64,000 nt of DNA from Minisyncoccota bacterium. Its GTDB lineage: Bacteria > Patescibacteriota > Minisyncoccia > Phycocordibacterales > CAJBRS01. Positions within the stretch are counted from its first letter, which is position 1, and each line of letters begins with the position of its first letter. This document shows positions 9,141 through 64,000 of this stretch, one piece after another. The stretch is from NCBI GenBank assembly GCA_035652395.1, contig DASRDX010000009.1, positions 62,642 to 126,641 of the forward strand, read 5' to 3'. The notes under the pieces are model-generated. The model was given only the letters and a program-made list of their open reading frames with translations, made no database searches and was not told the origin of the DNA. Both the position numbers and the translations under genes were made by a program.

Positions 9141-9149
9141 TCTTTAAAT

Positions 9150-9738: not shown

Positions 9739-10227
9739 ATGGCTTCTGAAGACAAATCTAAAGAGCTTCATCGCATTGCCGTTACCGCCATTATTTATAA
9801 AGACGGCAAATACTTAATCACTAAACGGGCGCCGACAGAAAACGCCTTTCCCAATATGTGGACGGTTCCCGGAGGTGGTCTCTCAACCGATGATTATATG
9901 AGTACTCCAGAAACTCATCCAAACCAGTGGTATTACGCCCTGGAAAAAAGTTTACGAAACGAGATTCGTGAGGAAGTTAATTTGGAAATTGAAAAACCGG
10001 AATATTTACTGGATTTAACCCTGGTCCGGCCGGATAAAACTCCGGTCTTAGTCTTGAGTTTCTTCGCCGCTTATAAATCTGGAGAGGTGAAACTCAATGA
10101 AGACTCCACCGACTTTGCCTGGGTTAGCTTTGAAGAAGCGAAAAAGTACGATCTTATCCCAGGGATTTTGGAGGAAATTGAACTGGCTGACAAACGTCTT
10201 TTTAAACATCCTCTCCCTTCAGAATAA
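9739..10227 (+). CDS. NUDIX hydrolase
   Basis: Nudix box GGGLS...SLRNEIREEVNLEIE (GX5EX7REUXEEXGU pattern). Confidence 0.8.
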   Translation: MASEDKSKELHRIAVTAIIYKDGKYLITKRAPTENAFPNMWTVPGGGLSTDDYMSTPETHPNQWYYALEKSLRNEIREEVNLEIEKPEYLLDLTLVRPDKTPVLVLSFFAAYKSGEVKLNEDSTDFAWVSFEEAKKYDLIPGILEEIELADKRLFKHPLPSE

Positions 10228-10230
10228 AAT

Positions 10231-11166
10231 TTGGAGGAAGGCACCGGACCGAACAATTTTATGGCCTCACTCTACACTCAACAAGATTCAAACATCGCCA
10301 AAACCTGGATTTTAATGATTATCTTTTTGATAGTGCTTCTAGGCATTGGTTATTTCTTCAGCTACTACTATCAAAGTCCAAGTATTTTATATTTCGCTTT
10401 TATTTTTAGCCTGATCATGAATATCGGCAGTTACTGGTTTTCGGACAAGATCGTGCTCGGTATTTCCCGCGCTAAGCAAGTAACTAAGGCTGAAGCCCCC
10501 GATCTTTATAATGTGGTGGAAAACCTTTCAATCACCGCCGGTCTTCCAATGCCGAAAATTTACATTATCAATGATCCGGCGCCGAATGCTTTTGCTACTG
10601 GCCGCAATAAGGATCACGCCGCCGTGGCTGTTACTTCGGGCCTGCTTCAAATGATGAACAAAACGGAACTTGAAGGAGTAATTGCTCATGAGCTTTCGCA
10701 TATTGGCAACCGGGATATTTTGCTTTCTACGGTGGTAGTAGTGCTGGTGGGCTTAATTACTTTGCTGTCTGATTTTTTTCTGCGGCTGTCGTTTTTTGGA
10801 GGCAACCGTAGTCGGGATAGGGAAGGCGGCGGCGCTATTCTGGCACTGATTGGTGTCGTGCTGGCCATTTTAACTCCGATAATTGCCACCTTGCTTCAGT
10901 TAGCCATCTCGCGCCGCCGCGAATCCCTTGCTGACACCAGTGGAGCCTTGCTCACACGCTACCCTGAAGGTTTGGCTTCGGCCTTGGAAAAAATTGCCGC
11001 CTATAAAGTGCCAATGAAGCACGCTAATAATGCCACCGCTCATCTTTATATATCGAATCCTTTTGGACCGGATAGCCGCCGGCTTAGCGGTATCTCCCGC
11101 CTTTTCATGACTCATCCGCCTATTGAAGAAAGAATTGCCGCCCTTCGCCAAAGCGAACAATCTTGA
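10231..11166 (+). CDS. htpX: HtpX-like zinc metalloprotease (peptidase M48)
   Basis: HELSHIGNRD (HExxH) with flanking TM helices. The LemA-HtpX pairing is common. The gene ends with TGA, which shows TGA is a stop codon here. Confidence 0.85.
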   Translation: MEEGTGPNNFMASLYTQQDSNIAKTWILMIIFLIVLLGIGYFFSYYYQSPSILYFAFIFSLIMNIGSYWFSDKIVLGISRAKQVTKAEAPDLYNVVENLSITAGLPMPKIYIINDPAPNAFATGRNKDHAAVAVTSGLLQMMNKTELEGVIAHELSHIGNRDILLSTVVVVLVGLITLLSDFFLRLSFFGGNRSRDREGGGAILALIGVVLAILTPIIATLLQLAISRRRESLADTSGALLTRYPEGLASALEKIAAYKVPMKHANNATAHLYISNPFGPDSRRLSGISRLFMTHPPIEERIAALRQSEQS

Positions 11167-16006: not shown

Positions 16007-16279
16007 ATGATCCGTCTTGAAGATCTTTCTTTTGAAGAAAAGCAATGTTTAGCTTACCTTGCTTACGTTAGAACCCATGGTCACCAAATGCTTCGAAATG
16101 TTTTTTACAAATCCAGCGATGAAAAAATCATTCTTCGCATTGATTTGGAACTTGATGTTTCCTCGCGTTTACTTTCCATACCCGAGTGGGTTAGACAAAA
16201 TTTGCCTGACCCAAAGGAGCACTGGGTCAAAGAATACCTACTTAACCGCTTTGCTCCCGATTCTCCAGCGGCGCCTTAA
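16007..16279 (+). CDS. Hypothetical small protein (the six-frame ORF starts at 15917; the internal ATG 16007 is preceded by GAAGG)
   Basis: ORF with a plausible RBS/ATG at 16007 and a terminator hairpin AGCGTTCGCCGTAGGCGAACGCT at 16306-16328. Confidence 0.35.
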   Translation: MIRLEDLSFEEKQCLAYLAYVRTHGHQMLRNVFYKSSDEKIILRIDLELDVSSRLLSIPEWVRQNLPDPKEHWVKEYLLNRFAPDSPAAP

Positions 16280-26581: not shown

Positions 26582-27304
26582 TTAACTTCGATAATCCCAA
26601 GTCCAAAGATGGATTCTAATCAGCAGAACTTCAAAAAACATTCTAATCATTCCTTTGAAGTTCATACCGCTTCGCTCATCATTAACCCAGACAATCGGTA
26701 CTTCCTTGATTCTAAATCCAAATCTCTTAGCTAGAGCCAAAATCTCCACATCAAAAGCCCAGTAAAAAGATGTTTGATGGCGGAAAATTTTTTCGGCTGC
26801 ACGTTGGGAAAAAAGTTTAAAACCATCTTGAGTGTCCGCAATTTCAAGTGGTATTAAAAGACGCACTATCCACTGAAAAAGATTTCCCAGAAAAATCCGT
26901 AATGGTGGTTGAGGGGAAATAATTTCGGAGCCGGTAATCTTCCGAGAACCTATCACCACATCAAAACCGGCGCGAGCAAAAGACAGAAGCTGGGGCAGTT
27001 GCTTGATATCGGTAGAATTATCAGCATCAGTAAAAAGACGGTATTTGCCGGAAGCGTTTACCATACCTTCGCGAACGGCATAACCCTTGCCATGACTGTG
27101 CCGCTCTAAAAGCCTTAAATTCGTGACTCTACCTTCAAACTGCCTAATAATTTCTCGGCTTCGGTCAATTGAGCCATTATCTACTACGATTATTTCAGTT
27201 TCGTATTCTTGCTCTCCTAAAAACCTGCCGATGGCCTCTAAAGTAGAGCCAATTCGGGCTTCTTCGTTGAAACAGGGGATAATAATAGAGAGAAAAAGAG
27301 GCAT
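26582..27304 (-). CDS. Family 2 glycosyltransferase (polyprenol-phosphate sugar transferase type)
   Basis: IIIPCFNEE...VVDNGSIDRS...DAD, the GT2 DxD-type motifs. Confidence 0.8.
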   Translation of the reverse strand: MPLFLSIIIPCFNEEARIGSTLEAIGRFLGEQEYETEIIVVDNGSIDRSREIIRQFEGRVTNLRLLERHSHGKGYAVREGMVNASGKYRLFTDADNSTDIKQLPQLLSFARAGFDVVIGSRKITGSEIISPQPPLRIFLGNLFQWIVRLLIPLEIADTQDGFKLFSQRAAEKIFRHQTSFYWAFDVEILALAKRFGFRIKEVPIVWVNDERSGMNFKGMIRMFFEVLLIRIHLWTWDYRS

Positions 27305-27355
27305 ACAGTAGGTTATAAAGTTATATAGTTCTTAAAGTTTATAAAGTAAGGCATT

Positions 27356-27796
27356 TTAGACATTTTTAAAGACCCAAAATCGAGCAAAAAGGAAATTCCA
27401 AAACAAGGTACTGAAAGAGGCGGTCAAAAGCGCTAGAATATCGGGAAAATTCAGATAAGTACGGGTCAGAAAATGAATCAAGACATTTAAAAACACACCG
27501 CTGCCAACCGTTGCATAAAAACGCAAGGCTTCGTTCCAATTGACACGACTTTTTCGATTAAAAGTAAAAGAACGATTGGTAAAAAAACTAAAAGTGACGG
27601 CAGTCAAAAAAGAAATTGTCTTTGCCAGACTTAAGTGATAAGTAAAATAAAAAGTCCAGTGTTTTAAATCAAAATAGACAGATATATCTATTAAGGTGTT
27701 AACAATTCCCACTAACGAGAATTTTATAAACTGCCGGAAAGCAATTGATTTGGGGAGACGATTAAAAATTTTTTCCTTCATATTTATTTCCATCAT
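27356..27796 (-). CDS. GtrA-like membrane protein
   Basis: FIKFSLVGIVNTLIDISVYF with four TM helices. Upstream of the GT2 gene in the same orientation. Confidence 0.7.
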   Translation of the reverse strand: MMEINMKEKIFNRLPKSIAFRQFIKFSLVGIVNTLIDISVYFDLKHWTFYFTYHLSLAKTISFLTAVTFSFFTNRSFTFNRKSRVNWNEALRFYATVGSGVFLNVLIHFLTRTYLNFPDILALLTASFSTLFWNFLFARFWVFKNV

Positions 27797-27873
27797 ATAT
27801 CATTTTGAAAAATTCTTAGAAACCGATGTGAAAAAATTTAGACGTCAGATTGGATTTTTAATATAATAGAGAA

Positions 27874-28359
27874 ATGAGAAACACCACTAAAATTTTATTA
27901 ATCGGTTTTCTAATTTTAATTATTGTACTATGTCTTTTACATTTTTGGCCTAAAGGACAAGTACAGGCTCCTGCTATCAATGCTATAAAGGACACAAATA
28001 ATTACGCTACCACCAGTCTTTCTATAGGACAGGATCACATTACGGTAGAAATAGCCGACACTGAAGAGAAGCGAACCCTAGGTTTAGGTAATCGTTCGAG
28101 CCTTCCTCTAAACACTGGCATGCTTTTTATTTTTGATCACCCTGATCATTATGGTTTCTGGATGAAGGACACTAAAATTGCTCTTGATATGATTTGGATT
28201 AGTGAAGATAAAAAAATTGTTGACATTAAAAGTGACGTTTTGCCCGAAACTTATCCGATGGTTTTTCGTCCCCAATCGCTTGCTCTATATGTTCTCGAAT
28301 TACCGGCTGGTTACGCTAAAATCCATCAAATAAAAACAGGTGAGCAGGTAAATTTCTAA
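27874..28359 (+). CDS. DUF192 domain protein
   Basis: EIADTEEKRTLGLGNRSSLPLNTGMLFIFD...FWMKDTKIALDMIWI matches DUF192. Confidence 0.7.
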   Translation: MRNTTKILLIGFLILIIVLCLLHFWPKGQVQAPAINAIKDTNNYATTSLSIGQDHITVEIADTEEKRTLGLGNRSSLPLNTGMLFIFDHPDHYGFWMKDTKIALDMIWISEDKKIVDIKSDVLPETYPMVFRPQSLALYVLELPAGYAKIHQIKTGEQVNF

Positions 28360-28530
28360 AGAAAGCTCCTAAAAAAGTATATTTTCTGGTCTATTTTAGG
28401 GGGCGATTTTACATCTCTAGTTTTTTATTTTCATATGCAAGAATCCTTGCTCCAGAACTGGTCTTTCTCTCCATTTCCGAGTAAAATTAAGTGAAATATT
28501 TAGTAAAATAATTCTCAAAATATAAAGAAC

Positions 28531-31272
28531 ATGAGCCTTTCAATCACCAAGCATGACGGTAGCCGCGAACCTTTTAATGCCGATCAAATTAATCGATCCA
28601 TTGAAAGAGCTTGTCGCGGACTGATGGATCCGATTGCGATGGTTACTCAAATTGCTACTGAAACGCGACTGACTCTTTATGATGGAATCACTACCAAAGA
28701 ACTTGATCAGGCTACCATCAATGCTTCTCTTCAAAATGTTAAAGATGACCCTTCATACGACAAGGTAGCTACTCGTATTCTTCTGAAAACCATTTATCGT
28801 GAGGTTTTGGGAGATTACGATAAGGATAGTGAAGCGGAATTAATTAAAAAACATCGCGACGGTTTCATTAACTTCATTAAAAAGGGAGTGGAAGAGGGTA
28901 AGCTCGATTCACGAATGGAAGAAAAATTTAATCTGCGTGAACTTTCCAAAACTTTAGATATTGAACGAGATGAATTATTTCAGTACGCCGGTCTTTCCAC
29001 TTTTCTCAATCGTTATGCTCTGAAGAATTTAGATCAAAGTCCGCGCGAAACGCCGCAATATTTTTTCATGCGAGTGGCCATGGGACTTTCATTCAACGAA
29101 AACAAACCAACGGAGTGGGCCAAGAAGTTTTACAACAAGATGAGCAAATTTGAATACATTGGTGGCGGTTCCACCAATCTCGGCGCCGGAACAACTCACC
29201 CGGCACTTTCAAATTGTTTCCTGATGGAAGTGCAGGACGACATGGCGCACATTGCCAAGAGTGTGGCGGATGTGATGATGCTCTCTAAAGCTTCAGGCGG
29301 CCTGGGTGTTTCCGTTTCAAAATTACGAGCGGCCGGCTCACCTCTAAAATCAAACAATGGAGTTTCCACTGGTCCTACTCCTTTTGCCAAGATTATGGAC
29401 ACGGCCATTCGGGCTATTCAGCGAGGCGGCAAGAAAAAGGGGGCTCTCTGCTTCTATTTAGAGAATTGGCACATTGATTTTCCAGAATTTATTGACTGGA
29501 AGCACAACGCCGGCGATGACTACATGAGAATGAGAACCGCCAATACGGCCGCTTATCTTTCGGATGAATTCATGAAACGAGTCAGAAAAGCCGAGATGTG
29601 GTACATGTTTGATCCGGCTGAAACGGCTGACTTGGGAGAATTATACGGAGAAGCGTTCAGCAAGCGCTACAACAAGTACGTGGAGTTGGCTGATCAGGGT
29701 AAATTAAAGATGGCCAAGAAAATGCCAGCCGTAGAACTTTATCGTAAGATGCTCGTCTCTCTGCAGACCACCGGACACCCATGGCAGATTTTTAAAGACA
29801 CCATTAATCTGCGAGCTCTCAACAACAACACCGGCACCATTCACATGTCTAATCTCTGCACGGAAATCTGTTTACCACAGGATAAGGATAATATTGCTGT
29901 CTGTAATCTGGCTTCACTTAACTTAGCCGTGCATGTCATTAATAAGGAAGTTAACTGGGGCAAATTGGAAGAGTCAGTACGATTAGCCATTCGGCAGCTT
30001 GACAACCTTATTGACATTAACGTTCTGCCGGTAGCCGAGGCGGAGCGAGCGGATAAAGAGAATCGGGCCGTCGGACTCGGAGTAATGGGCTTTGCCGATG
30101 CTCTGGAGAAAATGGGCTTGGCATATGATAGTCAGCCGGCATACGATTTTGCCGATCGAATTTTTGAATTCATTAGTTATATGGCTATTGATGAGAGCGC
30201 CCGATTGGCCGATGAGCGCGGAGCGTACAAAAACTTCGCCGGCTCCGAATGGTCAAAAGGTCACGTGCCATTCGACACTATTTCTAAAATCGAAAAAGAG
30301 AGAGGTGTTCCGGTTTCCGTCACTCTTGAGAGCAAACACAAAGGTCTTAACTGGGATATCTTGCGGGAGAAAGTTAAGAAGGGAATTAGAAACGCCACTC
30401 TGATGGCTATTGCTCCGAACGCCAATATCGGCTTAATTGCCGCTACTACGCCGGGAGTAGACCCACGTTTTGCTCAAGTTTTTTCTCGCAACAAGATTTC
30501 CGGCAAATATCTCGATATCAACCATAATCTAGTGAAGGATTTGAAGAACCTTGGGGTTTGGGAAAAGGTAAAAGATTTAATCATTGAATATCAAGGTGAC
30601 ATTTCCAACATTGCCGAGATTCCCGAACACATCAAGGCAGTTTATAAGACTTCATTTACCACTTCACCCTATGGCTTTATTGAAGTAGTAGCTCGGGCCC
30701 AGAAATGGATGGATCAGGCTATTTCGCGCAACATGTATCTGCGCACCCGTGACATTGATGAGACGATGAAGATTTATATGAGCGCTTGGGAGAAAGGATT
30801 AAAGAGTACTTACTATCTACACATGGAACCAAGACACACAGCCGAGCAAAGTACCGTCTCCGTCAATAAGTCGCAGAAGATGGGCCGGGTGGGCTTCGGC
30901 GGTCTTCGAAAGAGTACCGTAGCGGCTGCGGTGGTAGAGGAAAAGACCACCGATGAATCGGAACTTCTGGCAGACAGTGCTCCCGCTACCATGATTGTGG
31001 AACCGGTGGTTAGTCCGATTAAAGAAGAAGACATGGTTGAGCCGGTAATGGTAGCGAAGATAGAGAAAAACATCGTCGAGACTGACAAAGCCGTGAGAAC
31101 TGTTGAGAGTGTCTCGAAAACTCCTAAAGTAGAAACTTCTGACGTTGCTCCAGCCGCCGTTACTCCCGCTGATCCAATTGCTCAATCTAAAAAGCCGAAC
31201 GTTCGTTTTATCGGCGCCAAGACTTGCCCAACGGATCCGGCTGAATTAAATCAGTGCGATAGTTGTCAATAA
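28531..31272 (+). CDS. nrdA: Ribonucleotide reductase class I alpha subunit with N-terminal ATP-cone and a C-terminal low-complexity extension
   Basis: ATP-cone ITKHDGSREPFNADQINRSIERAC. NxCxE region NLCTEICL. C-terminal Cys pair CPTDPAELNQCDSCQ. About 913 aa. Confidence 0.95.
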   Translation: MSLSITKHDGSREPFNADQINRSIERACRGLMDPIAMVTQIATETRLTLYDGITTKELDQATINASLQNVKDDPSYDKVATRILLKTIYREVLGDYDKDSEAELIKKHRDGFINFIKKGVEEGKLDSRMEEKFNLRELSKTLDIERDELFQYAGLSTFLNRYALKNLDQSPRETPQYFFMRVAMGLSFNENKPTEWAKKFYNKMSKFEYIGGGSTNLGAGTTHPALSNCFLMEVQDDMAHIAKSVADVMMLSKASGGLGVSVSKLRAAGSPLKSNNGVSTGPTPFAKIMDTAIRAIQRGGKKKGALCFYLENWHIDFPEFIDWKHNAGDDYMRMRTANTAAYLSDEFMKRVRKAEMWYMFDPAETADLGELYGEAFSKRYNKYVELADQGKLKMAKKMPAVELYRKMLVSLQTTGHPWQIFKDTINLRALNNNTGTIHMSNLCTEICLPQDKDNIAVCNLASLNLAVHVINKEVNWGKLEESVRLAIRQLDNLIDINVLPVAEAERADKENRAVGLGVMGFADALEKMGLAYDSQPAYDFADRIFEFISYMAIDESARLADERGAYKNFAGSEWSKGHVPFDTISKIEKERGVPVSVTLESKHKGLNWDILREKVKKGIRNATLMAIAPNANIGLIAATTPGVDPRFAQVFSRNKISGKYLDINHNLVKDLKNLGVWEKVKDLIIEYQGDISNIAEIPEHIKAVYKTSFTTSPYGFIEVVARAQKWMDQAISRNMYLRTRDIDETMKIYMSAWEKGLKSTYYLHMEPRHTAEQSTVSVNKSQKMGRVGFGGLRKSTVAAAVVEEKTTDESELLADSAPATMIVEPVVSPIKEEDMVEPVMVAKIEKNIVETDKAVRTVESVSKTPKVETSDVAPAAVTPADPIAQSKKPNVRFIGAKTCPTDPAELNQCDSCQ

Positions 31273-39587: not shown

Positions 39588-39980
39588 ATGCGGGAATTTC
39601 GAGAACGTAAAAAAATTAAGAAGCGCATCTATTCCAAGACAGTGGTAATAATTTTAGCTATTTTACTTGCTCTTTTAATTGAAGGGACCTGGAAAGTTTT
39701 CCAAAAAGAACGGGAGAGTGCGGCCAACTTGTGGCGAGTTAATAACCAGCTTTCGGAACTTCAGGCTCGAAATACCGCCCTGTCAGATGATGTGGCGGCC
39801 CTCCAGACTGATCAGGGGATTGAGAGTGAGATTCGCAGCAAATATCAGGTGGCCAAGTCAGGGGAGCAGGTCATAGTCATTGTGGACAAGGATAATACAG
39901 CTAGTTCAACTCCTCCCGGTAATTTCTTAGTCCGCTGGTGGGATAATTTTCTTAGTCTTTTTAAAAGAAAGACTAAATAG
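39588..39980 (+). CDS. ftsB: Septum formation initiator family protein (FtsB/DivIC-like)
   Basis: Single N-terminal TM then coiled coil NQLSELQARNTALSDDVAALQTDQGIESEIRSKY. Confidence 0.6.
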   Translation: MREFRERKKIKKRIYSKTVVIILAILLALLIEGTWKVFQKERESAANLWRVNNQLSELQARNTALSDDVAALQTDQGIESEIRSKYQVAKSGEQVIVIVDKDNTASSTPPGNFLVRWWDNFLSLFKRKTK

Positions 39981-40024
39981 CGAGATTAGTTCAATGGTAG
40001 AACACATGCTTCCCACCCCGACAG
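39980..40024 (+). pseudogene. Truncated 5' half of a tRNA-Gly-like gene (acceptor, D-arm, anticodon 5' stem and loop only)
   Basis: GCGAGATTAGTTCAATGGTAGAACACATGCTTCCCAC, then a non-tRNA sequence. Parallel to the intact tRNA-Gly 8 nt downstream. Confidence 0.6.
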
Positions 40025-40031
40025 TAAAATT

Positions 40032-40102
40032 GCGAGTGTCGTATAGTGGTAATACGTCTGCTTCCCAAGCAGATAACGCGAGTTCGATTCTCGCCACTCG
40101 CA
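40032..40102 (+). tRNA. tRNA-Gly (anticodon CCC)
   Basis: GCGAGTGTCGTATAGTGGTAATACGTCTGCTTCCCAAGCAGATAACGCGAGTTCGATTCTCGCCACTCGCA, a cloverleaf with T-loop TTCGATT. Confidence 0.85.
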
Positions 40103-40139
40103 CTAATGTTAGATTCGCAATTTACCACAGGATAAGAGC

Positions 40140-40315
40140 ATGAAATTGGTTCAATAATTCTATGGCAATAAGCCTAACACTCGAATATTCGGACTATGAG
40201 AAATGTTTTTCCCGTATCTCGCACTTTACAGAGTTCGATAATTCTATGGCACCGAGCCCCAATATACGAATATTCGGACGATGAGAGATATTTTTCTCGC
40301 CACTCGCACTAATTA
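40140..40315 (+). repeat. Two degenerate tRNA-derived repeat units (about 87 nt each) containing TAATTCTATGGCA and CGAATATTCGGAC; unit 2 ends with a 19-nt copy of the tRNA-Gly 3' end
   Basis: 40151-40195 and 40231-40280 share GTTCGATAATTCTATGGCA...CGAATATTCGGAC. 40296-40314 TCTCGCCACTCGCACTAAT is identical to 40090-40108. Confidence 0.6.
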
Positions 40316-43500: not shown

Positions 43501-43607
43501 TGCCGTAAAGTCCGTATAGCTTAAGCAATTATGTGGCAAGAAGCTATTAACCTCCAAAATTCAAACAATGAGAAGTATTTTCCGGCCCTCGACTTTGTAT
43601 AATTGAT

Positions 43608-44687: not shown

Positions 44688-45452
44688 TTAAGAAGTTCGT
44701 TTAATAGTTTTAACTTTTTCAAATACAAGAATGAGAAGAATCACGCAAAGCCAGACAGCGCCGAAAATTAGAAATAAATCCCCTCCCGCCTTAATTATAA
44801 AGAAATTAAAGAGTCCATGCAACACAACAGCCAAGACTAGGCCAATAATTAAATACAGTCTTCTTTGCCAAGGTGGTTTATAAAAGGCAAAAGCAATAAA
44901 AATACCGATAGTAGCTGAAGAGATAACATGGAGCAGGTTAGCTCCCAAAAATCGCAAATTACCAGTTACCACGCTATTGAAGAGATTATTTTGAAGGATA
45001 GGAGTATTTAGAAAGAAGATATTTTCCAGCGCCGCGAATCCCAGCGCGGCGCTGATAAGGTAAATTGCCGGATCAATCGGTTCATCGTTGTAAGGCGTAT
45101 TGATGCAGCTAAAATAGGCTGCCCAATATTTGAAAATTTCTTCCACCAGAGCAAAAATAAAGAATATCAACAGAGTAGCTTGAGTAGGATCCGGTTGAAT
45201 TAGATGCTCAAGACCCACCGCAATTAAAACGGCGATGATTCCGGCCCCGAAAGAACGCCAGATGATTTTTTTTGGTTCGGGATGCAGGCGATCTTCCTGA
45301 ATCCAGAAAAAGAGCCAAACGCAAGAAGGAACCACTCCTCCCAGGATGGCCCATACGGCCACCTGCGGATGAACAGATGTGAAGATCAGAGCTGCTATTA
45401 AAATCCGCAGAGGGTAAATCAGGAGCGAAATGATAATTAAAATTAATCTCAT
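44688..45452 (-). CDS. PrsW-like intramembrane protease family protein
   Basis: VEEIFKYWA (EExxK), LHVISSA (FxxxH-like) and HGLFNF motifs within a polytopic membrane protein. Confidence 0.55.
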   Translation of the reverse strand: MRLILIIISLLIYPLRILIAALIFTSVHPQVAVWAILGGVVPSCVWLFFWIQEDRLHPEPKKIIWRSFGAGIIAVLIAVGLEHLIQPDPTQATLLIFFIFALVEEIFKYWAAYFSCINTPYNDEPIDPAIYLISAALGFAALENIFFLNTPILQNNLFNSVVTGNLRFLGANLLHVISSATIGIFIAFAFYKPPWQRRLYLIIGLVLAVVLHGLFNFFIIKAGGDLFLIFGAVWLCVILLILVFEKVKTIKRTS

Positions 45453-47581
45453 TTAGAATTGCTTGGCCAACTTGCTACCATTAGCAGATCACTCTGGGCG
45501 GTTTCTTTTGGCAAAAATGACCATATTTCTTCCGTAATGAAAGGCATGAATGGATGGAGAAGTGCTAAGGATTTTTTTAAAAGGTGGCGTAGAAACCATT
45601 GTGTCCCTAGGGGGTTTTCTTTTAAGGTAGTCTTGCTTTCCTCGATTATTTTATCAGCAAAAGTGTGCCAGATATAGTGGTAGATATTTTCAGCGGCTAA
45701 ATGAAATTGAAAATTTTCAAAATAATTTGTCACCTCCTTCAGCAGTTTATTAAACTCCGTCAATTGTTTCTGTTGAAGTTCACTTAATTTAAGCTCCCCG
45801 GATTCTTGATAGTTTTCTGAGTTAGTTAAAACAAATCGGGCGATATTCCAGATTTTATTGGCAAAGTTCTTATAGCCGCGAATTTTATTTTCGTCTAATG
45901 ACATGTCACTGCCCGGAGGATTACCAACGATCAAAGCCATTCGCAAAGCATCCGTACCGTACTTTTCAATTAGCTCGAGCGGACTGACGACGTTGCCTTT
46001 ACTCTTGGACATTTTCTTACCCTTAGAATCATTAACTAATCCGTGAAGATAAACATGTTGAAAGGGGACTTCTTTAGCGAGATAGAGTCCGAAGATCACC
46101 ATTCGCGGAATCCACTTAAAGATTAAATCATAACCGGATTCCATTACCGAGGTAGGGTAAAAAGTCTTAAAATCAGACTGATCGGGGAAACCTAAAGTAA
46201 TGAGTGGCCATTGTCCGGAAGAAAACCAAGTATCGAATGTATCGGTGTCGGCAACCATGGCGCCACCACATTTTGGGCATTTCCGAATAGAATCATCCAA
46301 ATCGGGAAAAGCTTCTCCGCATTCCTGACAAATTTTGGCCGGAATGGGGATGCCCCAGACAATCTGGCGGGAAATATTCCAGTCAATAGTGTTCTCCATC
46401 CAGTAAGTAAAAATCTTCTTATAATTTTCAGGATGAAAAATTACTCGGTTTTCTTCAGCCGCTTTTAAAGCCAAATCGGCCAAGGGTTTCATTTTCACAA
46501 ACCATTGGGGCAATTCTCGAGGTTCAATAATCGTCTCGCATTTATAACAGACGGGAACAGGGTGGGTGTAGTCTTCGATTTTTTCAATTAAATGCATGGA
46601 TTCAAGATCAGCCACTACCTGTTTGCGAGCCTCCAGCACTTTAAGACCTTTATACTTGCCAGTCTTTTCGTTTAGTCGGCCAAACTGATCAATGACTTCC
46701 TTTTTCGGCAAATTATGTCGAGCGGCAATTTCAAAATCATTTTTATCGTGCGAAGGAGTAATTTTTAAAGCGCCTGTGCCAAATTCCATTTCTACGGCTG
46801 CGTCTGCAACTACTGGAAGATCCATCTGACCAATCGGTGTTTCTACCGTAATGTTTTGACCGATATATTTTTGATATCTGGAATCTTCCGGATTAACCGC
46901 TATCGCCCCATCTCCGAACATTGTCTCCGGTCTAACCGTGGCAACTACCAACGGTCCATATTTTAGATAATAGAGTTTATCCGTCATTTCTTTGGAGACC
47001 GTTTCTACGTCGGAGAGGGAAGTCTGATGTTTCGTGCACCAGTTTACCAGCCGACTGGCACGGTAAATCAAACCATCGTCAAACATTTTTTTAAAAGTCT
47101 GGTGGACAGTTTTGATGACGTCGGGATCGAGGGTAAATTTTTCACGTGACCAGTCGCAGGAAGCCCCCAGAGCGCGGATTTCACTCTCCATTTTTTTCTT
47201 GTTTTCCTGAGTAAAGTTATAGATTTCCTGATAAAGCTCTTTTGGATCCATCTTGAACCGGGATCGGCCTTCCTTTTCCAGCTTTTTCTCATAAACAATC
47301 TGGGTTTCAAAACCGGCGTGATCGGCGCCAGGAAGCCAGAGAGTTTTAAAGCCTTGCATTCGTTTGTATCGGATCATCAGGTCTTCCAGTGTCGTGCCTA
47401 AAGCATGACCGGCGTGAAGATGGCCGTTGGCGTTAGGTGGCGGCATGATGATAGTGAAGGGCTCTTTTCGATCATTTGGAAGCTTGTCGGGATTAAAAAA
47501 ACCGCTCGCTTCCCAGATTTGGTAAATGCGAGACTCTGTTTCTTTTGGATTGTAGGGCTTTAGGAGTTTCTCGGGGATCAT
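45449..47581 (-). CDS. valS: Valyl-tRNA synthetase (short form lacking the C-terminal coiled coil)
   Basis: PPPNANGHLHAGHA (HIGH), KMSKSKGN (KMSKS), an editing-domain segment, and zinc-knuckle CxxC pairs. Confidence 0.85.
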   Translation of the reverse strand: MIPEKLLKPYNPKETESRIYQIWEASGFFNPDKLPNDRKEPFTIIMPPPNANGHLHAGHALGTTLEDLMIRYKRMQGFKTLWLPGADHAGFETQIVYEKKLEKEGRSRFKMDPKELYQEIYNFTQENKKKMESEIRALGASCDWSREKFTLDPDVIKTVHQTFKKMFDDGLIYRASRLVNWCTKHQTSLSDVETVSKEMTDKLYYLKYGPLVVATVRPETMFGDGAIAVNPEDSRYQKYIGQNITVETPIGQMDLPVVADAAVEMEFGTGALKITPSHDKNDFEIAARHNLPKKEVIDQFGRLNEKTGKYKGLKVLEARKQVVADLESMHLIEKIEDYTHPVPVCYKCETIIEPRELPQWFVKMKPLADLALKAAEENRVIFHPENYKKIFTYWMENTIDWNISRQIVWGIPIPAKICQECGEAFPDLDDSIRKCPKCGGAMVADTDTFDTWFSSGQWPLITLGFPDQSDFKTFYPTSVMESGYDLIFKWIPRMVIFGLYLAKEVPFQHVYLHGLVNDSKGKKMSKSKGNVVSPLELIEKYGTDALRMALIVGNPPGSDMSLDENKIRGYKNFANKIWNIARFVLTNSENYQESGELKLSELQQKQLTEFNKLLKEVTNYFENFQFHLAAENIYHYIWHTFADKIIEESKTTLKENPLGTQWFLRHLLKKSLALLHPFMPFITEEIWSFLPKETAQSDLLMVASWPSNSK

Positions 47582-49366: not shown

Positions 49367-49439
49367 GTGCGCGGTGAGGGATTCGAACCCCCGGCATCAA
49401 CAACGTCAATGTTGCGCTCTACCAACTGAGCTAACCGCG
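49367..49439 (-). tRNA. tRNA-Val (anticodon GAC)
   Basis: rc: GCGCGGTTAGCTCAGTTGGTAGAGCGCAACATTGACGTTGTTGATGCCGGGGGTTCGAATCCCTCACCGCGCA. Confidence 0.85.
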
Positions 49440-49524
49440 CCTTTTATGAAATTTACCATTTTTCGGCGATAGAGGAAAAAGTTTTACCACAGTTTGCCAC
49501 ATACCTTGGAGTATCGGGCCTTCT

Positions 49525-49598
49525 TGCCATAGAATTACTCTTCACCTCTAACATCAACCACGTCAATGTTGCGCTCTACCAATTGAGCTAATCGCCCT
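49525..49598 (-). pseudogene. Truncated tRNA-Val 5' half followed by TAATTCTATGGCA-containing sequence
   Basis: rc of 49549-49598 is GGGCGATTAGCTCAATTGGTAGAGCGCAACATTGACGTGGTTGATG, then TTAGAGGTGAAGAGTAATTCTATGGCAAGAAGGCC. There is no T-arm. Confidence 0.6.
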
Positions 49599-49643
49599 TC
49601 TTTTGAATAATAAAGTCTTCCGAGCTTTTGGGCAAGAATCTGT

Positions 49644-50414
49644 TCAATGAATCTTTTTGTAATGTTTCAAGTAAGCCACGATGATGAAGCTGATTATAAC
49701 CATCAAAAACCAAGAGGTGATTTTGTTGGTAGAAACGACATTCCATACATGAACTTGATCGGGATATTGCCAGGCGCCCCAAAAAGTTGAAAGATTTTCG
49801 GCAACCCAAAGAAAGAAGGCGATGAGACAGAAGCCTAAAGCAAGCGGCATGGAGCGACGTCTTTCCGTAACTGTAAAGAAGACTTGAGTGCGGGCAAATA
49901 GAAGAAATACTGCCGGAATAAGTAGAATACGAAGATCCGGAATAAAGTGATTGGTGAAAAAGTTAAGGTAAATTAAAACTCCCAGCACTAACATGGCCGG
50001 ATAATTTGGTGGCTCTTCCAGTTCAAGTTTCAGTATTCTCCAAGCTTGAGCAATGTAGCTTCCTACAGAGGCGTACATAAAACCGGCAAAGAGCGGCACG
50101 GTAGCGATTTTAAAGATAGCCGCTTCGGGATAACTCCATGAGCCGATAGCTGGATTAGTCTTGAAAACTTCCAAAAGAGTTCCAATAAGGTGAAAGAGAA
50201 AAATAGTTTTGATCTCATCCCATGTCTCGATTTTTGTCAGAAATAGAATAATCTGCAAAAGAACCGCCGATAAAAAGAGAAAATCGTATCTCGCCAAACC
50301 AAAAAGGGGAATGTGATTTGAAAGAAATAAAAGAGCAAAAAATGAGCCCGCAAAAATGCAGGCACGGGCTTCTTTTATGATGAAGATCATGAATTCTCGA
50401 GCAAGTTTTTTCAT
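49644..50414 (-). CDS. DUF817 family membrane protein
   Basis: 256 aa, polytopic. IKEARACIFAGSFFALLFLS...FHLIGTLLEVFKT resembles DUF817. Confidence 0.6.
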   Translation of the reverse strand: MKKLAREFMIFIIKEARACIFAGSFFALLFLSNHIPLFGLARYDFLFLSAVLLQIILFLTKIETWDEIKTIFLFHLIGTLLEVFKTNPAIGSWSYPEAAIFKIATVPLFAGFMYASVGSYIAQAWRILKLELEEPPNYPAMLVLGVLIYLNFFTNHFIPDLRILLIPAVFLLFARTQVFFTVTERRRSMPLALGFCLIAFFLWVAENLSTFWGAWQYPDQVHVWNVVSTNKITSWFLMVIISFIIVAYLKHYKKIH

Positions 50415-50423
50415 GAAATATTG

Positions 50424-50495
50424 TGACCCTACCGGGAATCGAACCCGGATTACCAGCTTGAAAAGCTGATGTCCTAACCGTTAGACGATAGGGCC
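50424..50495 (-). tRNA. tRNA-Glu (anticodon TTC)
   Basis: rc: GGCCCTATCGTCTAACGGTTAGGACATCAGCTTTTCAAGCTGGTAATCCGGGTTCGATTCCCGGTAGGGTCA. Confidence 0.85.
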
Positions 50496-50562
50496 GTAAA
50501 AATAGCTTTTAAAATATAGCATTTTTTGTTCAAACGACAAAAAATGCTACGATTTTCAGACT

Positions 50563-50649
50563 GGAGGAGTGGCTGAGTGGTTGAAGGCACCAGTTTCGAA
50601 AACTGGCATGTGGGAAACCGCATCAGAGGTTCGAATCCTCTCTCCTCCG
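50563..50649 (+). tRNA. tRNA-Ser (anticodon CGA), type II
   Basis: GGAGGAGTGGCTGAGTGGTTGAAGGCACCAGTTTCGAAAACTGG, long variable arm, GAGGTTCGAATCCTCTCTCCTCCG. Confidence 0.85.
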
Positions 50650-50714
50650 CATCGTCGAGATAGGTCACCCCGCACGAGGAGCGTCATTTTGATTTACTCT
50701 GATACAATTTAACC

Positions 50715-51527
50715 ATGATCAAGGGGAATGAAGTTACATGGTATTCCAAATTAGCGGCTATCATTTTCTTTATTGGAGTATTACCAACTCTGACTTTTTA
50801 TGTGGGGACACAATTTGAATTAACTCAATCAACTTTAAAAAGTGAAAAGTCTTCTATCCCGGATTCTGCTACGCCCAGTTTTTTAAGTAATAAGTTTTTA
50901 ACTAGTGACAATAATTGCAATGTTCTACCTCCTAAAGAAAGCACCTCATCTCTAGAAGGTTATTTACAAAGATATCCAAATATTACAGGGGGAATGGTCT
51001 GTAAATATTCAATCTTCCCTAATCAATCCCCATATACATTCAATTTGTTGGGAAGTGAGTACGACACGATCATAGGAATCGATGTCATAAAAGATGGAAA
51101 GAAGATCCAACATATTGCTATGGATAACAAAGCAGAGGGACCGTATATGTTTGAGCCGTCATACTCTACCGACTTTTTTCATAGTGCCGACATTAATTTC
51201 GATGGATACAATGATATAGAAATGGACACTTGTTTTGGAGCAACCGGAAATGTTTGTAGAACTTATTTCTTATTTAATCCTCAAACCAGTCAATTTGACT
51301 ACAGCGAGGATTTTAGCAAAATGTCCGGATTGCCCGATCCTGTGACTAAAACTATCTTAACTCACGGAAACAGTTGCGCAGACTGTAACTACGATGCTGA
51401 ATATAAAGTAGTAAATAACAAACCAGTTCTCGTAAAAGGCGTTGATAGTGAGCATGGAGTTGTTGTGACGACCGAACTAAAAAATGGAGTCTATGTCACT
51501 TCTACCTCTACAGAAAAAACCAATTAA
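50715..51527 (+). CDS. Hypothetical membrane-anchored, Cys-containing protein encoded in a visibly lower-GC segment
   Basis: N-terminal TM. AT-rich codon usage compared with neighbouring genes. Sits immediately after the tRNA cluster. Confidence 0.5.
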   Translation: MIKGNEVTWYSKLAAIIFFIGVLPTLTFYVGTQFELTQSTLKSEKSSIPDSATPSFLSNKFLTSDNNCNVLPPKESTSSLEGYLQRYPNITGGMVCKYSIFPNQSPYTFNLLGSEYDTIIGIDVIKDGKKIQHIAMDNKAEGPYMFEPSYSTDFFHSADINFDGYNDIEMDTCFGATGNVCRTYFLFNPQTSQFDYSEDFSKMSGLPDPVTKTILTHGNSCADCNYDAEYKVVNNKPVLVKGVDSEHGVVVTTELKNGVYVTSTSTEKTN

Positions 51528-51660
51528 AATTAGCTCGAGGTCCGTCGAAGAATCTAAAATTAAAATGCTAAAATAACCTTACTGGGCTTGACCGATAAAA
51601 GTTCTAAGTCGAGATAGCCCGCCTTGACTTTCCCAGGCTTTTGACTAATGTGGTTTTAGT

Positions 51661-52044
51661 ATGCACCTTTATATTGAAATGACTTTGATTGCTGGCTCGT
51701 TGATCTTGTTTATAACTGGCCGTCGGTTTCCGACCTATCGGAAGCAGTACGAAATTAAGACCCAAACTACACGCGACTTGCTCAGGTTCTGGTACGGAAA
51801 TCCTAAGAGAACATGGAAGTGTACTCGTACATTTGTTGAACCTCACGGCGGTCCTTTTGGGCGGCCCGAAAACATGATCATTCTTAACGACCAATCGGAA
51901 AGAGTTATTCTTTGCGCTGATCCAACGAAGATACCCGAAGGAGCCTTGGTTAAATTGCGTCTACGGAGAAAGGATGAATCCCGATATTCTAGTCGGGTTG
52001 CTAGTCTCGTGGACGAGTTTATGGTTCCTGAAGTAGTTTCTTAA
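51661..52044 (+). CDS. Hypothetical protein (uncertain; an overlapping minus-strand ORF 51604-51894 is the alternative)
   Basis: 127-aa ORF with no motif. Which strand codes is not resolved. Confidence 0.3.
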   Translation: MHLYIEMTLIAGSLILFITGRRFPTYRKQYEIKTQTTRDLLRFWYGNPKRTWKCTRTFVEPHGGPFGRPENMIILNDQSERVILCADPTKIPEGALVKLRLRRKDESRYSSRVASLVDEFMVPEVVS

Positions 52045-52090
52045 TTCGATCATTCTTGCGGCGCGTGTCCAAAATATGCGCCCGTTTTAT

Positions 52091-53011
52091 TTATTTCGTG
52101 TGCAAATGGACGTAGATGTCCTCCAACGCTTTGACGGCGTCGCCGGCGGCGATGTTGTTTTGGTGATAGAGACCGTCGGTGCAGTCGCCGGCGGCCCAAA
52201 TGCCGGCGACTGAAGTTTGCTGGGTTTGGTGATCAACTACAATGTGCCCGTACACGTCCTTCTTTAAAAGCTCGCCAATAAAATCGGTGGAAGGGATGAG
52301 CCCGATTTCCACGAAAACACCGGCTACGGGGATTTCGGTGTTTTCGCCGGTTTCATTGTTTTTATAGATCACTCCTTTCACAAATTTATCTCCCTTTACT
52401 TCTACTAATTCGGCATTTAAAACCGCGTGCATTTTCGGATTTGAAAGAACTTTCTTGACGGTGACTGGATCGGCGCGAAACTCTTCGCCACGATTCAGCA
52501 GGGTAACGCTTTTACAATAGGCGAGTAATTGAGCGGCCGTTTCAAAAGCGGCGTTACCCCCGCCAATAACTACGACATCCTGGCTGGCAAAAAGAGGACC
52601 ATCGCAGGTGGCGCAATAAGTAATACCTTTATTTTCAAATTCGGTGGCGCCCGGCACCGCAATTTTCCGCCGCGTGCTGCCGACTGTCACTAGAACGGTT
52701 TTAGTTTCAAAATCACCGCCCGTGGTTTTAACCACAAAACCATTCCCACTTTTTTCAATAGATTTAACTAAAATTCCTTCTTTCAAATCCACCACATCTT
52801 CGGCGTAAGCCAGCAGATGTTTGCGAAAAGAGGTGGCCAGATCAATGCCACTAATGGAAACGGTACCAATCCAGTTTTGAATGTCGCCGGAGACGTTTGA
52901 CTGACCGCCAATTTCTTTGGCGATCAGAACGGTTTTGAGGCGTTTACGCGCAGCGTAAACGCCGGCGGCTACACCAGCCGGACCGCCTCCGATGATTGCT
53001 AAGTCGTACAT
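52091..53011 (-). CDS. trxB: Thioredoxin reductase
   Basis: IIGGGPAGVAAGVYAAR (FAD), CATCDG redox-active disulfide, VIGGGNAAFE (NADPH). Confidence 0.9.
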   Translation of the reverse strand: MYDLAIIGGGPAGVAAGVYAARKRLKTVLIAKEIGGQSNVSGDIQNWIGTVSISGIDLATSFRKHLLAYAEDVVDLKEGILVKSIEKSGNGFVVKTTGGDFETKTVLVTVGSTRRKIAVPGATEFENKGITYCATCDGPLFASQDVVVIGGGNAAFETAAQLLAYCKSVTLLNRGEEFRADPVTVKKVLSNPKMHAVLNAELVEVKGDKFVKGVIYKNNETGENTEIPVAGVFVEIGLIPSTDFIGELLKKDVYGHIVVDHQTQQTSVAGIWAAGDCTDGLYHQNNIAAGDAVKALEDIYVHLHTK

Positions 53012-61587: not shown

Positions 61588-61630
61588 AATCAATGGAAAA
61601 TGGCTTAAAATCGTGTTAAAATAGCAATAT

Positions 61631-64000
61631 ATGGCTCCAAAAGAAAACCCTAAAAATAAGGAAGAAAAGCCCATCGCCGGCGAAAATCGCCCCAATATTG
61701 TTCCGCGAAGTCTGGTGACCGAGATGAAAGAGTCGTATCTCGACTACGCCATGTCCGTTATTACGGCGCGAGCTTTGCCTGACATTCGTGATGGACTGAA
61801 GCCGGTGCATCGCCGCATTCTCTATGCCATGAACGAACTTGGTTTAACCGCCGGTGCCAAAACTCGAAAGTCAGCCAAGATTACCGGAGACGTTACAGGT
61901 AATTATCATCCGCACGGAGATGCGGCTGTTTATGAATCGCTGGTAAAGATGGCACAGGATTTTTCCATGCGCTACCCGCTCATTATTGGGCAGGGGAATT
62001 TCGGATCAATTGATGGCGACGGCGCGGCTGCCCCGCGTTACACTGAAGCTAAAATGTCGCGCATTGCCAGCGAACTTCTACGCGATCTGGAAAAAGGCAC
62101 GGTGGAATTCCGGCCAAATTATGAAGGCACTCGTCGTGAGCCGGTAGTTTTGCCGACGGCCGTGCCAAATCTTCTATTGAATGGAACATTAGGGATCGCT
62201 GTTGGTATGGCCTCAAACATTCCTCCTCACAACCTCGGAGAAGTAATAGACGCCACTATTCATTTAATTGATAATCCGGAAGCCGGCAATCCCGAACTGA
62301 CACAATTTATCAAAGGACCGGATTTTCCGACCGGCGGAATTATTTACGGTGAGAAAGATATTCATCACGCTTACGCCAACGGCAAAGGTCCGGTAGTAGT
62401 GCGGGGAGAAGCCGAGATTGTGGAAGAGAAGGCTGGCCGCTCCCAAATTATCGTCACTTCCATTCCATTTAGAGTGAACAAAGCCGATCTCATCACTCAT
62501 ATTGCTGATCTAGTGCGCGACAAGAAACTTGAAGGCATTAAGGACATTCGCGATGAATCAACCAAAGATATTCGCATTGTCATTGATCTTAAAAACGGTG
62601 CCTATCCGCAGAATGTTTTAAATTATCTTTACAAACACACACAACTCGAAGAAACTTTCCACTTTAACAATGTAGCCTTGGTAGATGGAGTGCCTCAAAC
62701 TCTGGCTCTCAAGGGCTTTTTAGAAGAGTTCATTAGCCACCGAAAGGTTGTTATTCGACGGCGCACTGAATTCGATCTGGCTCGAGCCGAAGAGAAAGAA
62801 CACATTTTGCTCGGCTTAAAGAAGGCTCTGGACCACATCGATCGCATCATTAAATTGATACGAGCGGCCAAAGACGTCACCACTGCTCATGGCGACTTGC
62901 GCAAGGAATTTAAATTCTCGGATAAGCAAGCTACTGCTATTTTGGAAATGCGGCTGCAGAAGCTTGCCGGGCTCGAGCGCAAGAAGATAGAAGATGATTT
63001 AAAAGAAACTCAAACTCTCATTAAAGATCTCAAAGAAATTTTGGCCAGCTCAAAGCGCATTCAAACGATTATTAAAAACGAACTGAAGGAAATCCGAGAG
63101 AAATATGCGGACGAACGCAAAACCAAGATCATCAAACACGGTGCCAAAGCTTTTTCTATTGAAGATGTTATTCCGGATGAGGAATCCGTACTGGTTCTGA
63201 CGGCTGGAGGCTACATCAAGCGCACCAATCCCGACGAATATCGACGTCAGAAACGTGGCGGAGTCGGAGTAGTTGATCTTGATACTAAGGAAGAAGATTT
63301 TATTACTAAATTCTTGACCACTAGCAGTCACAGCGACTTGCTTTTCTTTACCGATAAAGGCAAGGCATATCAAATCAAGATGTATGACATTCCGGAAGGA
63401 CGTCGGGCTACTCGCGGCAAATCAATTATGAATTTTCTGTCACTTGGCTCAGACGAGAAAGTCACCTCCATTTTACCGATGCCGAAAGTGGTGAAGAATA
63501 ATCCGGTTTCTCTTCTTATGGTAACCAAAGGTGGGACGGCCAAAAAAGTCAAAGCCGAAAATTTTCATGATGTTAGACGCAGCGGTTTGATCGCCATTCG
63601 GCTGGAGGCGGGAGATGAATTAATTTCAGCCTCTTTTGTGGAAAAGGGAGATGAGGTCAGTGTTGTCTCGTCCGATGGACAATCCATTCGATTTAGGGAA
63701 TCAGACGTGAGAGAAATGGGCAGAAGCGCCGGCGGAGTTCGGGTCATGAAATTAGCTAAAAAGGCCGAAGTTGTGGGGGCGGATGTCATCAAGAAAAGCT
63801 ATAGTAATCCGGAAATTCTGGTGGTGATGAAGAATGGTTATGGCAAGAAGACTGATCTGAAAGAATACAAAACTCAAAAACGAGGGGGAAGCGGCATTAA
63901 GACGGCCAAAGTAACTTCCAAAACTGGCGATCTGATCGCTTCCAAAGTTATTTCCGGAGCCGAAACGGAAGTAGTAGCTATTTCCAAAAAGAGTCAGGTC
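61631..64000 (+). CDS. gyrA: DNA gyrase subunit A (3' end beyond window)
   Basis: [29 protein letters not shown]...[22 protein letters not shown]...GNFGSIDGD. It is missing from the ORF track because no stop codon falls inside the window. Confidence 0.95.

Follow-up and report, generated by a model that had tools for sequence, protein, structure and literature searches.

XAC2610 (X-Tfi) of Xanthomonas citri (PDB entry 4QTQ, NCBIfam model NF047539) is an immunity protein that inhibits XAC2609, a GH19 lysozyme-like effector of a type IV secretion system (PMC10933484). Its residues 151-159 form a Ca2+ loop and Ca2+ stabilises the protein, and inhibition is carried by the loop that contains Tyr170 and is weakened by the Y170A mutation (PMC10933484). 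PliI-Ah and Tsi1 rely on a serine in the loop that is topologically equivalent to the Tyr170 loop (PMC10933484). Here, we describe ORF270, an open reading frame (ORF) that starts 64 nt downstream of the 3' end of a tRNA-Ser(cga) gene on the same strand in a Minisyncoccota bacterium. It is located in a stretch of 64,000 nucleotides (NCBI GenBank assembly GCA_035652395.1, contig DASRDX010000009.1, forward-strand positions 62,642 to 126,641), which we call the window. The encoded protein is 100% identical to the hypothetical protein VFA52_00780 of a Candidatus Paceibacterota metagenome-assembled genome and adds a divergent member to the known XAC2610 family.

The NCBIfam model NF047539 (XAC2610_fam, 'XAC2610-related protein') matches residues 156-241 of ORF270 with an E-value of 1.2e-15 and a score of 57.7 bits, for a cut-off of 35, and it also matches 40 out of 40 aligned homologues. 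Pfam and PHROGs contain no match to ORF270. The preliminary description of this DNA, made from the sequence alone, had seen no recognisable domain in the protein, which holds for Pfam but not for NCBIfam. A single-sequence phmmer search of the PDB with ORF270 gives no match, and a family profile of its homologues reaches entry 4qtq with an E-value of 9.2e-10. The AlphaFold2 model of ORF270, built on 11 sequences and with a mean predicted local distance difference test score (pLDDT) of 74, consists of a helix (residues 9-44), a disordered linker (residues 45-91) and a confident all-beta domain (residues 92-270). Using this model as a Foldseek query, 4qtq is the sole match at E <= 0.001 (E 1.7e-7), followed in rank by the beta-propellers of integrin alpha chains and by FG-GAP-like proteins. 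The ectodomain, residues 92-270, is thus predicted by the model to share the fold of the 4QTQ crystal structure. The family is broad, with 455 clusters (50% identity) at E <= 1e-3 and 55 at E <= 1e-10.

ORF270 contains the Ca2+ motif of the family. Its segment DINFDGYND (residues 159-167) aligns in the profile alignment with the Ca2+ loop DINGDGHED of XAC2610 (native residues 151-159), both conforming to the pattern D-x-N-x-D-G-x-x-D. Asp159, Asp163, Gly164, Asp167 and Gly178 are invariant among the 40 homologues, and Asn161, Phe162, Gly175, Thr177 and Asn179 are conserved in at least 90% of them. A second conserved segment, the C173-FGATGNV-C181 loop, is aligned with residues 165-173, the inhibitory loop, of XAC2610, and the Cys pair that flanks its GATGN sequence is found in most close Paceibacterial homologues, although not in all. 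The hydrophobic N-terminal anchor and the six Cys residues that are seen in ORF270 bear out its earlier characterization as a membrane-anchored Cys-containing protein. The protein has no lipobox and its hydrophobic helix spans residues 9-31, such that a transmembrane anchor is found where XAC2610 has a lipoprotein box. Patescibacteria are not known to have an outer membrane. Both proteins are predicted to be positioned outside the cytoplasmic membrane, and for ORF270 the Cys-rich ectodomain and the family precedent suggest that the ectodomain faces outside. The genomic surroundings differ as well, as no GH19/XVIPCD effector gene is found next to ORF270, which has a tRNA-Ser gene, an ORFan (ORF127) and trxB as its neighbours.

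The surroundings of ORF270 were compared in 80 related loci, obtained from a TrxB scan of GTDB species representatives. The order FtsA-FtsZ-TrxB is kept in almost all of them and TsaD is within reach in 30. In all 30 of these readable relatives the gap between TrxB and TsaD holds a tRNA-Val(gac) and a tRNA-Glu(ttc or ctc) gene, and in about half of them also a tRNA-Ser(cga) gene. The gap measures between 224 and 7434 bp, gene order and orientation vary, and the ORFs found within it are largely unrelated, 64 out of 95 being singletons (after 12 window query proteins were taken out of 76 singletons). ORF270, ORF127 and the DUF817 membrane-protein gene that lies on the other side of tRNA-Glu are present in 0 of the 80 related FtsZ-TrxB loci (tblastn, E <= 1e-5), the two nearest included. 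In the nearest relative, L010 (TrxB 84% identical in amino-acid sequence), the tRNA genes are arranged and oriented as they are in the window, and DNA homology breaks off where the 3' end of tRNA-Ser is reached (position 50650), to resume at the trxB stop (position 52091). Homology with locus L011 likewise ends at the 3' end of tRNA-Ser. Between tRNA-Ser and trxB, L010 contains an unrelated DUF4385 gene (9022-9528, minus strand) that also matches the phage family phrog_5325, and window positions 49600-50421, which include the DUF817 gene, are replaced in L010 by about 490 bp of unrelated DNA. The gap between TrxB and TsaD thus contains two lineage-specific insertions, the second being the DUF817 gene. 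It is a hypervariable slot, anchored by tRNA genes and with a different cargo in each related genome, and ORF270 is an ordinary accessory gene of this slot that is absent from the relatives. Because all 80 loci lack ORF270, ORF127 and the DUF817 gene in a slot that is otherwise filled with unrelated cargo, its lateral gain is plausible.

The composition of ORF270 deviates from that of its surroundings. Its G+C content (GC) is 36.4%, compared with a mean of 43.5% (standard deviation 3.7) for the 68 window ORFs of at least 90 amino acids, among which it is the second lowest (z about -1.9). Relative to the 45 window ORFs of at least 150 amino acids, the z-scores are -2.4 for GC and -2.1 for GC at third codon positions (GC3), and GC3 itself is 32.5% versus 43.1% (standard deviation 5.4) for the window ORFs. 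The codon-usage log-odds score of 0.086 lies below that of 23 long conserved genes (0.286±0.075, minimum 0.173). The frame of ORF270 nevertheless scores far above its five other frames, and the ORF is therefore coding, if atypical. The deviation is real but moderate, a position in the tail that is not unique: four other window ORFs, among them GtrA-like and DUF192 genes, are comparably AT-rich (GC 33.6-37.3%). Within the segment between tRNA-Ser and trxB it is confined to ORF270, while ORF127 (GC 45.1%) and the remainder are host-like, the GC of the whole of 51528-52090 being 44%. The AT-richness relative to the neighbours that the preliminary description had noticed is thus confirmed by GC, GC3 and codon score, and its mention of one or more low-GC genes applies to ORF270 but not to ORF127 or to 51528-52090. 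The GC of ORF270 does not fall well inside the distribution of the genes but in its lower tail, and no relative carries an ortholog at this position.

The closest homologues of ORF270 are 34-46% identical to it, share its N-terminal anchor and are found in six differing neighbourhoods. In the window the gene has a GC of 36.4% in a locus of 43.5%, and the corresponding pairs of gene and locus GC are 33.9% and 45.3% for L004, 44.1% and 48.4% for L001, 37.6% and 31.9% for L006, 35.4% and 34.7% for L170, 42.3% and 42.7% for L171, and 41.7% and 41.0% for L172. The GC of the Paceibacterial homologues thus stays at 34-44% irrespective of that of the host (locus GC 32-48%), and it is therefore only in hosts of higher GC, this one included, that the gene has a foreign appearance. 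Of 36 loci from the wider family, 29 have a family gene whose GC is below that of its neighbours (Wilcoxon p 3e-5). One distant homologue, that of L004/L005, starts 43 nt downstream of a tRNA-Ser(gga) gene. With the window this gives adjacency to tRNA-Ser in two of seven contexts, an observation that is suggestive but post hoc.

The N-terminal 33 amino acids of ORF270 form a module of their own, with the consensus M-I-K-F-N-E-V-T-W-Y-S-K-L-A-A-I-I-F-F-I-G-V-L-P-x-L-T-F-Y-I-G, that is matched by no model in Pfam or NCBIfam. It is almost unchanged among the Patescibacterial proteins that carry it (P0002-P0022, P0024, P0029, P0030, P0050 and P0172-P0252). Eleven of its positions are invariant over 14 proteins, some of which have other domains such as META (PF03724) and DKNYY (PF13644). 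The module is also found in stand-alone proteins of 41-74 amino acids, in 81 clusters, according to a profile search from which only short proteins came back. It may act as a lineage-specific sorting or anchoring signal. As this anchor is specific to Patescibacteria, any transfer of ORF270 stayed inside the phylum.

The tRNA genes upstream of ORF270 carry what look like traces of recombination. Three intact tRNA genes are found near it, with concordant predictions from ARAGORN and Rfam, and the previously noted Val fragment is a second tRNA-Val(gac) copy that according to its sequence is disrupted in the T-loop: a 53-nt 5' part (49545-49597) is separated by a 69-nt insert (49476-49544) from a 13-nt T-stem/acceptor 3' part (49463-49475). 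The earlier description of a four-tRNA cluster is therefore correct as to the presence of tRNAs near ORF270 but not as to their contiguity, since the DUF817 gene (771 bp, GC 40.3%) splits the two Val copies from tRNA-Glu. The disrupted architecture is also present in L010 and in none of the other 79 loci. As L010 has this scar without ORF270, the disruption predates the split between the window and L010 and does not bound ORF270. The insert belongs to a family of repeats of about 80 nt with the core TAATTCTATGGCAAGAAGCC, which nhmmer finds only in the window and in L010. The family is located beside or within tRNA genes, and most of its members terminate in a duplicate of the T-stem/acceptor 3' strand of the neighbouring tRNA, which in the window is Val, Gly (twice) and Phe. 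In L010 the Val end is clear and a Ser end less so, and copy 16141-16222 was matched to no tRNA. No conserved RNA fold is seen in the repeat, and IMG/VR contains no exact match to its core. To judge from their sequences, the copies look like att-type scars, and because they end in tRNA 3' strands, the tRNA genes of this lineage appear to be recurrent targets of recombination.

Taken together, these data lead us to the following explanation. The anchor and the disordered Ser/Thr-rich linker would hold a Ca2+-binding, beta-propeller-like XAC2610 domain at the outer surface of the cytoplasmic membrane, close to the cell wall. There, the domain would bind a peptidoglycan hydrolase (lysozyme-like or an amidase), either the cell's own or one that comes from a host, a competitor or a phage, and the conserved GATGN loop would enter the active site of the hydrolase, blocking the enzyme and protecting the Paceibacterial wall. 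Together with the doubtful ORF127, ORF270 occupies 50651-52090, a segment of 1.44 kb that separates tRNA-Ser(cga) from trxB and is specific to this lineage, and it was probably gained by recombination from a lower-GC Patescibacterium. The topology of the protein, as well as the direction and mechanism of its acquisition, are what we infer from the data above. We prefer to see in ORF270 an accessory gene that is mobile among Patescibacteria and is not ameliorated in higher-GC hosts, because its neighbourhoods vary and its GC is steady against that of the host. For the explanation as a whole, that of an anchored, inhibitor-like accessory gene that was laterally gained, we see about an even chance. 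Inhibition of peptidoglycan hydrolases outside the cytoplasm, by analogy with XAC2610, PliI-Ah and Tsi1, is the most likely function, and we assign it tentatively. It is supported by the domain fusions within the family, in which a cell-wall theme is seen: P0097 is fused to LprI, a lysozyme-inhibitor domain, and P0045 to LysM.

A number of observations weigh against this explanation, in terms of function as well as acquisition. ORF270 and XAC2610 are no more than 13-14% identical, and Tyr170 of XAC2610 aligns in the profile with Thr177 of ORF270, such that the functionally key tyrosine is absent. There is no peptidoglycan hydrolase gene adjoining ORF270, and in a set of 82 immediately flanking genes, taken from metagenomic and Paceibacterial loci with members of the family, no gene family occurs more than twice and no lysozyme or GH19 family is recurrent. 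The fold is also integrin/FG-GAP-like and as such compatible with Ca2+-dependent binding of other things. The main alternative to an inhibitor, which we consider possible but rather doubtful, is accordingly a Ca2+-dependent surface binding or adhesion protein of the FG-GAP/integrin type that attaches the Paceibacterium to a host cell or polymer. It would account for the lack of a hydrolase partner and of the inhibitory tyrosine, and it agrees with the folds that rank next after 4qtq, with the presence of FG-GAP repeats in one homologue and with the fusion of others to ankyrin/TPR interaction modules; the fusions with a cell-wall theme point to the inhibitor instead. Because ORF127 has no homologues and no flanking family is recurrent, there is no evidence for a partner gene, and the subgroup behaves like solitary inhibitors (Pli, Mli and LprI types) rather than like effector-immunity pairs. 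A sequence relationship to Pli, Mli or LprI, as represented by stand-alone lysozyme inhibitors, periplasmic or membrane-bound, of the PliI-Ah (3OD9), MliC and LprI types, is not detectable in ORF270. A toxin/immunity or effector/immunity pair of ORF270 and ORF127, with the latter as a small membrane toxin, is very improbable. The two ORFs are on the same strand, 133 nt apart and with no terminator between them, a terminator-like hairpin follows ORF127, and the N-terminus of ORF127 contains a hydrophobic segment. ORF127, however, has a codon score in the range of spurious ORFs, is preceded by neither an extended -10 element nor a Shine-Dalgarno sequence and differs in composition from ORF270, and the homologues of ORF270 have no comparable downstream partner.

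As to acquisition, differential loss in the relatives could mimic a gain, and the low GC may partly mirror the expression of or the selection on this class of genes rather than recent transfer, because it is a family-wide trait. ORF270 is also old within Patescibacteria, since its closest homologues have the phylum-specific anchor. There is no integrase or mobility gene between tsaD and trxB, where the sizeable ORFs are the DUF817 gene, ORF127, ORF270 and a 96-amino-acid ORF overlapping ORF127, none of which matches a recombinase family. No repeat of the tRNA-Ser 3' end is present in 50665-52300, the best matches being chance matches of 7-10 nt, and protein searches and PHROGs give no phage or plasmid match. 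Vertical inheritance, in which the AT-richness stems from protein composition, low expression and relaxed codon selection and the relatives lost the gene from a decaying slot, would fit the AT-richness of the family in many hosts, the very low GC at first codon positions (0.391), which points to an amino-acid effect, the phylum-specific anchor, the lack of mobility genes and att repeats, and the existence of equally AT-rich genes in the window such as the GtrA-like gene (33.6%). We nevertheless regard it as unlikely, as absence from 80 out of 80 relatives, the two nearest included, requires many independent losses, the homologues occupy at least six neighbourhoods with a GC that tracks low-GC Paceibacteria and not the host, and the slot gains unrelated genes everywhere. 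Even less likely is that 50651-52090 is the remnant of an integrase island at the 3' end of tRNA-Ser(cga), with ORF270 as its first cargo, ORF127 as a decayed gene and the tRNA fragments as att scars. Adjacency to the tRNA 3' end, the absence of the segment from relatives and a recurrently variable locus are all shared with tRNA-associated islands, and the composition deviates in ORF270 while being host-like in the rest of the segment. In addition, the repeats end in adjacent tRNA 3' strands, one of them directly after tRNA-Ser in L010, and tRNA-Ser and ORF270 together are flanked by a weak direct repeat of 24 nt (71% identity). The segment, unlike such islands, lacks an integrase, an att repeat and mobility genes and comprises 1.4 kb with one convincing gene. 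No downstream tRNA-Ser 3' repeat is found in the window, the Val scar is shared with L010, the repeat core is without an exact IMG/VR match, ORF127 has a host-like GC, and most homologue contexts (five of seven) are not tRNA-adjacent. The horizontal acquisition next to scarred tRNAs that had been proposed for this locus is consequently supported by the lineage specificity, the hypervariable slot and the composition, but not by integration hallmarks, the Val scar or the composition of ORF127; its intuition about tRNA scars is sound for the tRNA genes of the lineage in general and does not extend to ORF270. One could also envisage a larger Patescibacterial gene-flux system with ORF270 as cargo, in which small integrative modules repeatedly hit tRNA T-loops and 3' ends and leave scars of about 80 nt, where a copy of the tRNA 3' strand comes after the core TAATTCTATGGCA, one such event splitting a second tRNA-Val, and in which the 33-amino-acid signal NEVTWYSKLAAIIFFIGVLP..TFY.G on unrelated surface proteins and mini-proteins is read by a sortase/exosortase-like machinery. 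This would be a speculative and improbable reading.

The anchored, inhibitor-like accessory gene that we favour gives a family and a testable proposed function, that of a wall-protecting hydrolase inhibitor, to a hypothetical protein of an uncultivated Paceibacterium. Such organisms depend on other cells or are attached to them, and knowledge of their envelope defence is scarce. ORF270 is in itself unsurprising, XAC2610-related domains being as widespread as the number of clusters indicates. The locus documents a conserved tRNA-anchored hotspot (trxB-tRNA-Val/Glu/Ser-tsaD) for the exchange of accessory genes among Paceibacteria, which is useful for studies of pangenomes and horizontal gene transfer in reduced genomes.

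The features of the locus are listed in Table 1. No Shine-Dalgarno sequence precedes ORF270. An extended -10-like element is located 9 nt upstream of its ATG, and TGATAyAAT precedes the homologous genes of L004, L170, L171 and L172 at a distance of 6-11 nt from the ATG, which suggests that ORF270 is transcribed from an extended -10 promoter into a leaderless or near-leaderless mRNA. Plus-strand transcription may run from ORF270 to the hairpin at 52060-52082, as the consensus scan suggests. The spacer between tRNA-Ser and the gene, apparently conserved between the window and L004, was considered as a shared junction and rejected: the conservation consists mostly of TGATAyAAT, which also precedes homologues away from tRNAs. 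In many first genes of the window (e.g. those at 25720, 27874, 45449-47581, 50715 and 60639) a Shine-Dalgarno sequence is missing and the start codon is preceded, at about 6-10 nt, by a TGnTAnAAT-like element, suggesting that leaderless transcripts or ones with very short leaders are widespread in it.

Table 1. Positions of the features in and around ORF270. Numbering is that of the window, except for the repeat copies of L010.
Feature	Position	Strand	Remarks
Intact tRNA-Val(gac)	49367-49440	-	ARAGORN and Rfam; adjoins tsaD
Disrupted second tRNA-Val(gac)	49463-49597	-	Previously noted as a Val fragment
DUF817 membrane-protein gene	49644-50414	-	Pfam PF05675, E 1.7e-94
tRNA-Glu(ttc)	50423-50495	-	ARAGORN and Rfam; divergent from tRNA-Ser
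tRNA-Ser(cga)	50563-50650	+	ARAGORN and Rfam; left border of the lineage-specific segment
Extended -10-like element TGATACAAT	50697-50705	+	Read from the sequence
ORF270	50715-51527	+	270 amino acids; low-GC gene; single-pass membrane-anchored protein with XAC2610-family ectodomain
N-terminal module MIKGNEVTWYSKLAAIIFFIGVLPTLTFYVGTQ	50715-50813	+	33 amino acids; transmembrane anchor; in AlphaFold2 helix 9-44; kept across Patescibacteria
Low-complexity Ser/Thr/Asn/Pro-rich linker, residues 45-91	50847-50987	+	AlphaFold2 pLDDT <50; poor alignment among homologues
All-beta ectodomain, residues 92-270	50988-51524	+	Predicted XAC2610 fold; AlphaFold2, Foldseek 4qtq
Ca2+-binding loop motif D159-I-N-F-D-G-Y-N-D167	51189-51215	+	Profile alignment; predicted from sequence
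C173-FGATGNV-C181 loop	51231-51257	+	Profile-aligned with XAC2610 inhibitory loop
ORF127, hypothetical protein VFA52_00785	51661-52044	+	Gene status doubtful
Terminator-like hairpin followed by T-run	52060-52082	+	Consensus scan; between the stops of ORF127 and trxB
trxB, thioredoxin-reductase-like	52091-53011	-	Pfam Pyr_redox_2; right border of the variable slot
Repeat copy, window	49458-49546	-	
Repeat copy, window	40147-40226	+	
Repeat copy, window	40231-40313	+	
Repeat copy, window	43520-43591	+	
Repeat copy, L010	9660-9750	-	
Repeat copy, L010	10527-10616	+	
Repeat copy, L010	16141-16222	+	

The interval between ORF270 and trxB measures 563 bp, and trxB is convergent with both ORF270 and ORF127. 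As described previously, 51528-52090 contains overlapping ORFs, and these are found on both strands: ORF127 on the plus strand and the 96-amino-acid ORF on the minus strand. A homologue search among 5.8 billion proteins with ORF127 returns only ORF127 itself, and Pfam, NCBIfam and PHROGs give no match. Of the six frames, that of ORF127 has the highest codon score, but the value (-0.003) is within the range of spurious ORFs, and a single-sequence AlphaFold2 prediction is uninformative (pLDDT 44.8). A structured RNA in 51528-52090 was considered and rejected, as Rfam gives no match even at E <= 1 and the folding z-score is -1.13.

Within the tRNA interval, the divergently oriented tRNA-Glu and tRNA-Ser genes are separated by 67 bp that contain a perfect 13-nt inverted repeat, TAGCATTTTTTGT / ACAAAAAATGCTA, with a 7-nt loop (50517-50549), and a similar sequence is present in L010. 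A disrupted and an intact tRNA-Val stand in tandem in both genomes (49367-49597, minus strand, in the window and 10481-10691, plus strand, in L010) with their acceptor types swapped. The intact copy of the window is of the GCGCGGT type and its disrupted copy of the GGGCGAT type, and the reverse is true in L010 (GCGCGGT/ACCGCGC and GGGCGAT/ATCGCCC), such that in each genome the disrupted copy resembles the intact gene of the other. Just upstream of the intact tRNA-Gly gene at 40032-40103, a tRNA-Gly(ccc)-like 5' half, GCGAGATTAGTTCAATGGTAGAACACATGCTTCCCA, was identified by eye at about 39980-40015 on the plus strand. Its acceptor strand is complementary to ATCTCGC, the 3' fragment that ends repeat copy 40147-40226.

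In the Kaiserbacteria locus L001, the homologue of ORF270 and an uncharacterised gene of 284 amino acids are bracketed by two direct copies of a PNPOx-like gene (7343-7905 and 9858-10418; 563 bp, 87% identical), which suggests a segmental duplication or an insertion around the homologue. Elsewhere in the window, 61588-63049 is a stretch of 1.46 kb (GC 46.6%) with no ORF of at least 90 amino acids and no Rfam match, a non-coding length that is unusual for so compact a genome. The lowest GC of the window, 34.6-37.9%, is found in 27001-29000, a stretch that contains the GtrA-like gene (27356-27796, GC 33.6%) and the DUF192 gene (27874-28359, GC 36.6%).

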